Below the pieces are notes generated by a model that saw only the letters and a program-made list of their open reading frames with translations, did no database searches and had not been told where the DNA came from. A program made the translations under genes and the position numbers. Source: Hormiphora californensis (taxonomy: Eukaryota; Animalia; Ctenophora). From it: a stretch of 64,000 bases of DNA. Where the stretch lies: positions 7,626,001 through 7,690,000 of the forward strand of contig CM035356.1 of assembly GCA_020137815.1 (NCBI GenBank). Direction: 5' to 3'. This document shows positions 16,329 through 45,967 of this stretch, one piece after another. Each line of letters opens with the position of its first letter. The stretch's first letter is position 1.

Positions 16329-16404
16329 ATCAAGATGATTTCCATTGGATCCATCTTCCCCGGGATGCACCTTTAGTTTCTGCTCCAAGGCGGACTTGTT
16401 CGCC
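16329..16404 (-). CDS. Shared hub exon (phase 2 in, phase 0 out): x-ANKSALEQKLKVHPGEDGSNGNHLD
   Basis: Strong acceptor CCTCCTTCCTTCCAG|G and donor GAT|GTGAGT; 76 nt = 1 + 25 codons; its first G completes the split codon of every upstream phase-2 exon without a stop. Confidence 0.7.
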
Positions 16405-16678
16405 CTGGAAGGAAGGAGGGGGCAGGGGTTAGAAACAGAGACATATACAATTTAGAATCAAGTTAACCTACCCTTATTAATATCAAGAACCCCACCCATT
16501 TTAAACGTTTCAAATTTAAACCTCCAACCCGTATATTTTCAATGAAAGTACTATAAAAGTCGAGCAGTCTGTCAAAGATGTCGTTGTATGGGGTATGGCC
16601 TATCTAATTTGGTTTTTATCAGAATTGAAAAAAAAACAAAAAATTCGTTGCACAAACAAACAATTTTTCAAAACATAC

Positions 16679-17037
16679 ATTTTCTGAACTATAATCTTGG
16701 TTGCCGCTGCCTTGAACCTTGATGACGCCTTAACACTTTTCAAGGACTTATTGCTTCCACCCCTCTCAGTCAGCTCGGAACTACTCCACATGTCCTCATC
16801 ATCATCATCCCCCATAGCAACAACCTCCTCCCCCTTAGCAACGGATTCAACCGACTGAGAGACAGTGAGGATCCTCGGTATCGGGGTTGAGTGGGTGAGA
16901 GGGTTACAGATAACGTCCTCATGAACTCCATCACTGTGTTGTTGCTGCTGCTCAAAGTCTGGTAGGGACGGGACCACCTTGATGCCCCGATGACGAGGTA
17001 ACACCGGAGGAAGAATTGTGCGACGTTTCACTTTCAT
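16679..17037 (-). CDS. Variable first coding exon, phase 2 (MKVKRRTILPP...SRFKAAATKIIVQKM)
   Basis: ATG 17037; 119 codons + 2 nt; donor AT|GTATGT; two X-boxes ~430-520 bp upstream. Confidence 0.7.
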
Positions 17038-17464
17038 GATTTCTCATTGCAATCTCTATCTCTCTCAAATAGCAGCTGGATCTACAGATTATTGAGATAT
17101 GAGAACTGAGCAAGATTCAACTGGATCTATAATAGAGAACGGGAAATAACAGTAGCTAGATCTATAATAGAGGATAAGAAGAATAATAGGCTCTGAGTTG
17201 AAGAATAAGATATACTATTATAGGTGGCAAAAAATATGGGCCTCAAAGCGTCAATCTGTGGCATTCAAGAAGCATTGCACTCTTGTCAACACAACTATAC
17301 AGTTCAGCACTATATGTCACGCAAAGAAAGTAGTAGTATGAAAATATTTTGCATCCAACAAAAGATTTCTCACAACAGATCCAAAGATAGAAAATTGCAA
17401 TTGAAAAAAGTACTGCATCATCGCTAGTGTATGGTATAAGACGCCAGGGGATAGTATTGTACAT

Positions 17465-17554
17465 GTTACTATGGAAACTGTGAGAGTGAACAGGATAAAG
17501 TGCAATACTAGGTAAACTGTGAACAATATTGCGTCATCATGTCTCCATGGAAAC
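17465..17554. promoter_or_regulatory. Pair of RFX X-boxes (GTTACTATGGAAAC 17465-17478; GTCTCCATGGAAAC 17541-17554)
   Basis: Both exact matches to GTHNYYATRRNAAC, upstream of the 17037 ATG. Confidence 0.6.
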
Positions 17555-43025: not shown

Positions 43026-43173
43026 TATATGATCGATTATGATCACCTCCCGATCATCTATTTGAAGCCAAAAACGTCTGTATATAAGTTTGGTGTTAAA
43101 CTAGCTACAGAACACAGAACTGTGGTCAGAGCATTGGCCTGACAGCTACAGAACATTATTCGGGTCTACTTAC

Positions 43174-43331
43174 ACTTCATCCACAGCCTTCTTCCACCGA
43201 TTCCGAACGGTTAGATCCACAATTCTCGGTCCTGGTGTTTCCGTTGAAACAAATATCTCCAGTTCTCGCTCCGCTTTTGTCTGTGGTGAGTCCTGCACCT
43301 CTGCCAACTCCCCATCTTCAGCAGCAGGCAT
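43174..43331 (-). CDS. Variable first coding exon, phase 2 (MPAAEDGELAEVQDSPQ...TVRNRWKKAVDEV)
   Basis: ATG 43331, 6 nt after an acceptor-like/in-frame TAG; 52 codons + 2 nt; donor GT|GTAAGT; not in the ORF track. Confidence 0.72.
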
Positions 43332-45787
43332 GTCGAGCTAGATTTGAACAGATATATAGATTCAAGATTCACAGATATAATATACTTTTGATATACAGAT
43401 AGGTGTTTATCAAACAAAATATGTAATAACAAAAAATATATAGTACGAAGTGTGTAACAAAGAGGAAAATGAAGACTTCAGACATCCGAAGACCGACAAA
43501 CTTGTCAGGGCAGTTGCCATTTAATAAACAACTTATTGACAAATGAGTAAAGCTGTAGAGAGGCCACCACAAAAACTGTGTTATTGCGTTGAATAACTAT
43601 AATAGGGGTGTTAGTTGTTACTCATTGAGTAATACTCAACACGCATCGCAACCGTGACGAGAATTCTAAAGAAGGTCCTATACTAGTTGAACTCAAACAA
43701 ACACCATGGGAGAAAATAGTGTAGTAGTTTGTTGGAATTCGTCCTTACGACAGATGGCTGTCAGTTGGCACCTTTTCCTGTTTTTATTGCCAGCTTCAAC
43801 TAGCTCTACCCTATGAAGTTATTCTAGTTCGGTACCAATTATCAATTCTGTGGAGGAGGATGACAGGACGTCGAAACGGCCAAGAAATAGCCTGCACAAG
43901 CATTCAATAATATTGTATACCGGAAACGCCTGACTGAAACACTGAAACAAGTATAAATTCCAAACAAAGTGGTGAAACCAAAAAGTGGAATTTCTAATTC
44001 AGATCGATATGTATGCAGAAGCCACTATTGATCACAATTGATACGCCTGATTTCAAAAGAACGGATGCATCCTCTGTATATTATTTTAGATCAAATAGTA
44101 GCAATCATTACATGCTTGAGGCATCTTACGCTACAGTTTCATTCTCTCTCTTTCTCCCCCACTCATGCTCTCTTTCTCTCCCCTCTTCCTATATCTATAG
44201 CTCCGATAATCAAGAGGCCGGACAGGATTTGAGGGTTGCATGGTGACACGCGATCACTCCATGGGGTACCTCAGAATATACTACTAGAGGCCCTGCATGT
44301 TATCAGTTGCAGCACATCATGTAGACGAATTCAGAGATAAATTACGCGAAATCATCCACGAGAAGTAGTGAGATAGATAGATAGAGAGAGAGAGAGAGAG
44401 AGAGAGAGAGAGAGAGAGATAGAGGGAGAGAGAGAGAGAGAGAGATCCATATCAAAGAGGGACAGAAATGAGAATCAGATAAATCAACCCACGTCACCTG
44501 ATATATCAGCTACCAATATCTAGTTATGATTAGCAAATGTTATACACATCTGCATCATGGAGACTACATAGTGATATGAAAGTTATCATAGACTTGATGG
44601 GAAGCCTCTGGAGAGATGGGGAGAGAGAGCTGCTTAAGAAAGAGGACCCTCGAGGGAGAAGGAGAGAAGGATAGCGGATTTAGAAAGAGAGACTTGGGGA
44701 GTCAGAGAGGCTTCAGAAAGAGGGAGAGAGTCTATGGGAAGAAGGAGGGAGGAAAGATACGAAGGGATAGGACTGTTCACCGGACGCTGTGTTGATAGGT
44801 TTTCCTGAGCTGGACTTCTAAGCAGGGAAAGCAAACAGGAACTAGTGAACTACATTAAATGATATGCTAGTGCTCTCTAAGTCCATTTTAATGATATATT
44901 GTTCTTCTCTCCAGTATAATATGTACAGTTATTAGTGCGAGTCAGTACGTGCAGTAATGAATTAATAACAGTAGCTGGAACTGCTTTCCACAGATCTGTG
45001 CAACTCGTACACCGGTCCTGTACTTACAAAACTTATGAAAATAACAGACAACTCTTATGAAAATTACAAACAGTAAGATGCTAGATGACCAATTAAATTT
45101 GTTGAAAGAATGGCATTTTCCACGGCTTTGAGAGACCAACTGTTTGAAGCTGCAATAACAAAATCTAACAACAATAATATATGCTTATTAATATCGCTCA
45201 CATATTCCACATAATGGAATAGTAGCAGCACAGATTGCATTTCCTGTTTGTCCAGTATTAGGACCAAATGAAACAAAAGAAGAGACTAGCAAATGAAATG
45301 GAACCTAAAAGTGAAAGTTGTACCTACTGATCGCACACAAGAAGTTCTTCCCCGTTGTAGGGGAGAGCACATGTCGTCTTCGCAGTTAAAAAGCTGAACT
45401 GTCATTCTGTTGTCTGTTTACTACAGGTCTGACAAGAACCACACAGTTGACAGTCGTACTTGAATTGCTCATACTTTTTTAAAAAACATGTGTTCCGTGC
45501 GAAGCGCAGTGTCAGAGACTCAGTCGTACAACACAAGTATGTCTGTCTGATGTATAAATTTTTGTACAATAGGTAGTAGGTACCCCACCCGCCCTGTTGC
45601 AAAGAACAACGACCCGCCGGGACCATGACTCAACAAAAATTTCTGTCCCTGGCTCTCCTTTAGAATTAGCTAAATCAACCCACGTCATCTGAGAGCATAT
45701 CAGCTGCCGATATAAATATCTAGTTATACCCCCGCCAACATCCACAGCCCCCCCCCCTAACCCCCGAATCCAACAATTAGCACATAC

Positions 45788-45967
45788 TTAATTGCTGCTC
45801 TGATCCACGCATCTTTAGTGTTTATCGGTAGTTTCCTAGCAACTGGTTTGGTAGCTGATGCTGCTGGTGACGGAGCTGTTGTTGTTCCTTCTGGTTCTGT
45901 TGTTGTTCCTTCTGGTTGAATTGTTATCACTGCAGCAGTACTGGATTCCTCTATCGTATTGAGGGTA
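45788..45967 (-). CDS. Variable coding exon, phase 2-2 (TLNTIEESS...PEGTTT x2...TKDAWIRAAIK)
   Basis: Acceptor CCCCTATCCTCAG|T; 180 nt open; donor AA|GTATGT; likely exon 2 of the 46654 start exon. Confidence 0.68.

Follow-up and report, generated by a model that had tools for sequence, protein, structure and literature searches.

A stretch of 64,000 nucleotides (nt) from the ctenophore Hormiphora californensis (GenBank assembly GCA_020137815.1, contig CM035356.1, positions 7,626,001 to 7,690,000 of the forward strand), hereafter the window, carries on its minus strand what is likely a real and unusually large array of alternative start exons. About 14 starts are predicted, of which ten would join a shared 76-nt exon, the hub, whereas four ATG-bearing exons below it with phase-0 donors (9684, 3970, 3256 and 1633; positions are those of the window) are predicted to join the exon that follows the hub. 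An earlier note on this DNA had proposed that the variable exons end in basic-aromatic helices acting as interchangeable calmodulin-binding-like sites, some of them assembled across the splice junction. For about half of the exons the calmodulin idea stands as a lead; the junction-assembly claim fails, and the sites are mostly encoded within the exons.

The variable-exon array exceeds chance, with an excess of phase-2 exon ends that is confined to the minus strand and lies only above the hub. Between 16500 and 47000 on that strand, the phase-2 reading is open for at least 50 codons upstream of 18 of 87 donor-like sites, against 7 and 4 for phases 0 and 1. The same scan gives 4, 3 and 2 of 69 donor-like sites on the plus strand, and 1, 2 and 3 of 41 on the minus strand above 47000. 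From the scan matches and sequence inspection we modelled ten N-terminal units (A–J, Table 1), five of them with two exons; three inner phase-2 donors (46506, 36502 and 31316) were added by eye, and six of the 18 matches (46414, 45475, 45068, 40901, 32057 and 31355) were dropped as likely noise. None of the dropped matches contains the core pattern described below, and all of them were counted in the unselected test of that pattern.

The open reading frame runs through the hub in all ten unit models, and the locus has the make-up of an alternative-first-exon array, namely several ATG-bearing exons with one donor phase that fits a shared exon. Units B, D, F, H and J cannot continue a phase-2 frame, since the sequence before their ATG, as read by eye, has either a stop in frame or an acceptor in the wrong phase. 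They would thus be starts rather than links of one chain, and at least some of the units would be alternatives to one another. A phase-2 splice from upstream units is possible for C, E, G and I and also for the second exon in each of A, D and E. Among 13 acceptor–donor candidates below the hub there is no convincing constant (phase-0 internal) exon, and the gene body would hence lie beyond base 1 of the window. Taken as a whole, the exon layout is strongly indicated by the sequence and we regard it as highly probable.

Most start exons sit behind an acceptor-like AG. In Hormiphora 56% of Iso-Seq reads are trans-spliced, and ctenophore mRNAs are widely so (PMC8527503). Trans-splicing could explain the AG, and a plain 5′ untranslated exon would do so too. 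The window contains no copy of a published ctenophore leader sequence, which is uninformative on trans-splicing of the variable gene. Comparison of 12100–32000 and 600–11900 with the contigs of one sequencing run, whose RNA status is a guess, returned only repeat matches of 19–49 nt and no exon or joint, and is evidence neither way. A coding-potential model trained on the cysteine-rich neighbouring gene did not separate the exons from background and was dropped.

Table 1 Predicted exons of the variable gene, with one rejected candidate. Windows are positive predictor windows at the junction; percentages are shuffles reaching that count.
Feature	Position	Strand	Description
Unit A exon 1	46506..46654	-	Predicted first coding exon; ATG; in-frame stop 3 codons before ATG; phase-2 donor GTAAGT; basic end without aromatic
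Unit A exon 2	45788..45967	-	Phase 2 to 2; ends KDAWIRAAIK; motif-bearing; 19/20 windows, 0.4%
Unit B	43174..43331	-	Predicted first coding exon; ends VRNRWKKAVDEV; motif-bearing; W in 1-5-8-14 register with hub; 14/20 windows, 3.2%
EHFKRSK	38973..38992	-	Rejected as variable exon; 6 open phase-2 codons, no ATG
Unit C exon 1	38095..38217	-	Predicted first coding exon; phase-0 donor GTATAG; chosen by eye
Unit C exon 2	37830..38014	-	Phase 0 to 2; ends TSGKW, W being the junction codon; core motif absent
Unit D exon 1	36502..36638	-	Predicted first coding exon; phase-2 donor GTATAC; chosen by eye
Unit D exon 2	36230..36280	-	51 nt; phase 2 to 2; ends LSKWEIVR; borderline motif; last 18 residues net -1
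Unit E exon 1	31316..31464	-	Predicted first coding exon; phase-2 donor GTGAGT; acidic end
Unit E exon 2	30815..31075	-	Phase 2 to 2; KFKRAVVKAVMM five residues before donor; motif-bearing, entirely intra-exon
Unit F exon 1	28721..28828	-	Predicted first coding exon; phase-0 donor GTATTT; chosen by eye
Unit F exon 2	28341..28546	-	Phase 0 to 2; acidic Cys-rich end, net -4; no motif; 0/20 windows
Unit G	25541..25927	-	Phase-2 acceptor 25927, own ATG 25809; ends ARNRWKIL; motif-bearing; RVxF-type match
Unit H	20778..21010	-	Predicted first coding exon; ends GSFR; net charge -2; no core motif
Unit I	18613..18671	-	Short, uncertain start exon; basic; junction W; core motif absent
Unit J	16679..17037	-	Predicted first coding exon; ends SRFKAAATKIIVQKM; best motif, 1-5-10 intra-exon, net +5; 20/20 windows, 0.2%
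Hub exon	16329..16404	-	76 nt; phase 2 to 0; strong pyrimidine-rich acceptor, GTGAGT donor; leading G completes incoming codon, then 25 codons
Phase-0 start exon	9684..9926	-	Predicted, uncertain; Thr/Asn-rich; hub would be bypassed
Phase-0 start exon	3970..4401	-	Predicted; 144 codons; 8 RRxS/T-type matches; ends near RKSSLARMISFIQLE
Phase-0 start exon	3256..3357	-	Predicted; 34 codons; carries RKASIARVVGYIKLE
Phase-0 start exon	1633..1830	-	Predicted; strong GTAAGT donor

The nine peptides quoted in the earlier note and the hub peptide all occur in the minus-strand translation where that note had placed them, and every coordinate given there is that of the final base ahead of a phase-2 GT donor, the last codon being completed by the first G of the hub. 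Because the hub supplies G after AG, TG or AA, the junction residue is R, W or K in 7 of the 10 modelled N-termini; AG before GT is the ordinary donor consensus. The final residues of TSGKW and GSFR, both offered as examples of the motif, are such junction codons (TG+G and AG+G), which leaves the two examples unsupported, and the final R of EIVR in unit D arises from AG+G as well. EHFKRSK (38973) is not a credible exon (Table 1). At 30815 the quoted KFKRAVVKAVMM is present but ends at 30829, short of the donor. Basic-aromatic ends are found at donors 45788, 43174, 30815, 25541 and 16679, with 36230 borderline, and do not extend to all variable exons; among the phase-2 ends that had been passed over, 28341 (acidic), 18613 and the three inner donors lack the motif.

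Defined as W or F, a basic residue within two, then A, V, I or L, the core pattern occurs within the last 17 residues of five of the ten N-termini (A, B, E, G and J) and is absent from the rest of the 869 residues; this count of N-termini was reached by 1 of 20,000 within-exon shuffles. The pattern sits 4–16 residues inside the exon, off the junction codon, and of the ten tryptophans other than those made at the junction, four lie at −9 to −2 (p = 0.01). Exons B and G have RNRWK in common, with all four degenerate codons different and no nucleotide similarity between the exons, which suggests constraint at the protein level; any common 5-mer appears in 225–281 of 20,000 shuffles (1.1–1.4%). 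Net charge over the last 18 residues is positive in seven of ten units (A +4, B +2, C +1, E +4, G +2, I +3 and J +5) and negative in D, F and H. It is reasonably probable that the five motifs serve a common function.

The proposed assembly of sites across the junction did not survive closer inspection. The anchor counts behind it are correct, the 43174 exon giving 1-5-8-14 and the 25541 exon both 1-10 and 1-14, and W- or F-anchored spacing motifs are present in B, C, G, H and J. The hub anchors are at positions 6, 10 and 12, and an aromatic must lie 2, 4 or 8 residues ahead of the junction to give a 1-10 or 1-14 spacing. Among ten aromatics no more than 13 residues from the junction, three fit this register (B, G and H), close to the 2.3 expected with 3 of 13 offsets qualifying, and shuffled hubs did as well as the real hub in 197 of 1,000 trials. 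Some junction-spanning 1-10 or 1-14 pair is present in 44–64% of shuffles, so these spacings carry little weight. The two longest motifs (E and J) lie entirely within their own exons. The best hydrophobic moment near the junction exceeds that of the rest in six of nine comparable units.

Calmodulin-target prediction, using our re-implementation of a published predictor (PMC4076516), gave a divided picture. Of the windows starting in the last 20 residues of units A–J (junction windows), 99 of 200 were positive, against 105 of 598 elsewhere; pooled shuffles had a mean of 46 positive windows and none of 500 reached 99. Units A (0.004), J (0.002) and B (0.032) also pass the shuffle test individually. 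Junction windows hence beat shuffles, but pseudo-exons translated from non-coding frames score equally high, as detailed below; such translations contain many hydrophobic and basic residues. For the predictor itself, PMC4076516 gives 78% true negatives, and a false-positive rate of 33% for calmodulin prediction is cited in PMC7795363.

The phase-0 exons hold a second motif, overlooked in the earlier note. Exons 4401–3970 and 3357–3256 (minus strand) have in common a basic-hydrophobic segment at 3970–4035 and 3280–3345, RKxS-[LI]-A-R-x-x-x-[FY]-I-x-L-E, in which 8 of 15 residues are identical, five of them through different codons (pairwise E 4e-6). The segment begins with an RKxS kinase-like site, and the part behind that site is a candidate docking helix.

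Taking these results together, we tentatively favour, with slightly less than even confidence, a reading in which the window contains the 5′ region of one gene with about ten probably disordered N-termini spliced through the hub and about four that skip it, and in which Ca2+/calmodulin is the likeliest ligand of the short basic-hydrophobic segment that ends around half of them. Selection of one unit would fall to a promoter or to an acceptor used in leader trans-splicing; that unit would then be joined to the hub through a phase-2 donor or, where its donor is in phase 0, to an exon beyond the window start. The sequence argues strongly for this step. With moderate confidence, A, B, E, G and J would provide an aromatic-basic docking segment and two phase-0 exons a second type of segment behind the RKxS kinase-like site, whereas C, F, H and I would provide none. 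Putative binding of calmodulin to these segments would follow, with exon choice mainly setting whether and how the protein senses Ca2+. Calmodulin is a plausible partner, though weakly indicated.

Beyond the chance-level register, several observations weigh against this reading. The core pattern was defined post hoc, after inspection of the data, and six scan matches were discarded while the ten models were built; among the 18 unselected phase-2 matches the pattern occurs in 5, compared with 8 of 60 non-coding-frame pseudo-exons, which is not significant (p = 0.14). Mean predictor scores are the same for these two sets (8.06 and 8.08; p = 0.55), units C, G, D, H, E, F and I are individually not below p = 0.05, and the extracellular domain of the neighbouring gene is positive in 129 of 503 predictor windows. 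Searches of solved-structure sequences matched no solved calmodulin-target peptide. The 14-residue span of unit B includes D and E, and single-sequence models place exon B (43331–43176) in a low-confidence β-hairpin ending at the motif (predicted local distance difference test (pLDDT) 65) and assign no secondary structure to exon J, which is also of low confidence, with its last block highest (pLDDT 79).

In a rival reading the array is real and the segments are functional, but their partner is something other than calmodulin, such as the body of the protein itself (autoinhibition), acidic lipids of membranes or some other partner that binds helices. The constraint signals name no partner, calmodulin predictors are unspecific, and basic-aromatic stretches bind membranes too. 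What speaks for calmodulin is the detail of the segments: J combines a clean 1-5-10 spacing with a net charge of +5, the 1-5-8-14 of B is anchored by Trp and preceded by basic residues, and a kinase-like site adjoins the phase-0 motif, all of which are usual in calmodulin targets. Another partner is a serious alternative that we consider somewhat unlikely. Less probable, and in our view plainly unlikely, is that the array is real and the motif mostly an artefact of R, W and K forced by phase-2 donors, of helix-prone sequence near the hub and of choice by eye. The seven junction residues that are R, W or K, the three quoted examples that rest on junction residues or on a non-exon, the flat pseudo-exon control, and the register and hub tests at chance all point that way; against it, A, B, E, G and J carry the pattern well inside the exon, it is absent elsewhere in the units, and RNRWK is retained with different codons.

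The array itself could also be misread, in that the units are not alternative starts into one hub and some are instead serial or cassette exons, or nested or decayed genes. The exon junctions are predicted from the sequence, the units and second exons listed above could accept an upstream phase-2 splice, and nested genes are common in a ctenophore genome (PMC8527503). The inability of B, D, F, H and J to continue a phase-2 frame argues the other way, as do the lack of any gene body between units and the lack of a convincing phase-0 internal exon among the 13 candidates below the hub, and we consider this misreading improbable. Hardly more probable, and best treated as speculation, is a bolder version of the calmodulin reading, in which some 14 unrelated N-termini would include two independently evolved families of calmodulin helices, one joined through a hub with a KVHP ciliary-type signal and one bypassing it behind a kinase site, with starts picked by cell type, possibly through alternative spliced-leader trans-splicing. 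If true, a single gene would provide a code for both Ca2+ sensitivity and localisation, in an animal lineage that is among the earliest to branch.

The principle of exchanging calmodulin sites by alternative starts is already known from unc13 and PDE1. In Aplysia, unc13 has four isoforms (A–D) from intronic promoters, whose N-termini have a calmodulin site that is canonical, divergent or missing (PMC9282427). The likeness of unc13 (Munc13) to the ctenophore locus is one gene with alternative starts and N-termini with or without a calmodulin-binding helix, which is predicted in the latter; the differences are four forms in that source against about 14 predicted here, an extra small hub exon, common to one group of units, only in the ctenophore locus, and no unc13 domain in the window. 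Varied N-terminal regulatory regions with calmodulin-binding domains precede a constant body in PDE1 and confer differing Ca2+ sensitivity (PMC6023290). The ctenophore locus differs from PDE1 in having no PDE sequence match among the pieces searched with Pfam, in its many more variants, and in that binding is here predicted. PDE1A1 and PDE1A2 reportedly differ in calmodulin affinity.

Clustered protocadherin and UGT1 genes likewise splice first exons of one phase, arranged in a row, to shared exons, and their variable exons are duplicates encoding folded domains. We rejected a cluster of this type, as the 20 modelled exons have neither nucleotide similarity (no blastn match among them at E 0.01) nor a Pfam family and only two short motifs in common. 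Bilaterian cases of calmodulin-site swapping through alternative starts involve two to five isoforms, so that about 14 predicted starts would be unusually large, in a lineage that may have evolved its nervous and ciliary control on its own. The value of the finding is limited by the layout being predicted and by the most striking claim, that of junction-built sites, being at chance.

The body of the gene may be a regulated signalling enzyme or channel, which is a guess. No match was found for exon 4401–3970 among longer proteins, for the hub with its intronic flank among proteins, for exon 25950–25543 among 1.84 billion representatives, or for exon 17037–16681 and the hub 23-mer among metagenome contigs. 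Pfam searches with 12 and 13 pieces gave three sub-threshold matches only, and they missed the neighbouring LDLa gene too, which indicates low sensitivity. For two exons compared with the ESM Atlas, the best value was 0.77 for one and there was none for the other. Among solved-structure sequences the best was a split match to ribosomal protein S9 (E 0.04), judged to be chance. Resemblances to the N-terminal calmodulin site of a cyclic nucleotide-gated channel and to C8orf89-like proteins gained no support from searches. The literature searched for alternative promoters or first exons, or N-terminal splicing with a channel, describes no ctenophore case, supplements not being covered, and genome annotation files could hold the gene.

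Two short matches lie in the modelled exons. Exon G has an RVxF-type phosphatase-docking match at 25624–25638 (minus strand), and the hub encodes KVHP (16360–16373, minus strand), which fits (K/R/Q)VxPx, a reported ciliary targeting pattern (PMC3172256); four letters could easily arise by chance. An identical 28 nt is found at 43116–43143 and 35963–35990, in the introns just after exons B and D, both of which are Trp-bearing, and may be a splicing element or a repeat fragment.

On the plus strand, the neighbouring gene (60898–61050 and 62463–63998, running off the window end) is an LDLa-repeat G-protein-coupled receptor with 17 matches. The closest, at 72% identity, is an EukProt 'sb' model, a set which we take to be Pleurobrachia bachei; one match, at 31%, is labelled Mnemiopsis leidyi. 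These matches point to a ctenophore as the most likely source of the window. The receptor gene is 71–72% identical to P0002. At 61045–62480, inside its intron, lie duplications with nearly identical copies, one direct (530 nt, 99.6%) and one inverted (422 nt, 100%), that may be an assembly artefact. Long inverted-repeat elements, foldback-like or resembling miniature inverted-repeat transposable elements, lie at 14802–16217, 41460–43029, 49987–53699, 6033–6998 and 2519–2841, with arms of about 160 nt to 1.8 kb that are 79–99% alike; one sits below the hub at a distance of 110 nt and another below exon B at about 145 nt. The segment 13000–14600 is rich in homopolymers and resembles uncorrected long-read sequence, in which a small exon would be unreadable. 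An open frame of 138 codons at 857–1273 (plus strand) looks like the remnant of a mobile element.

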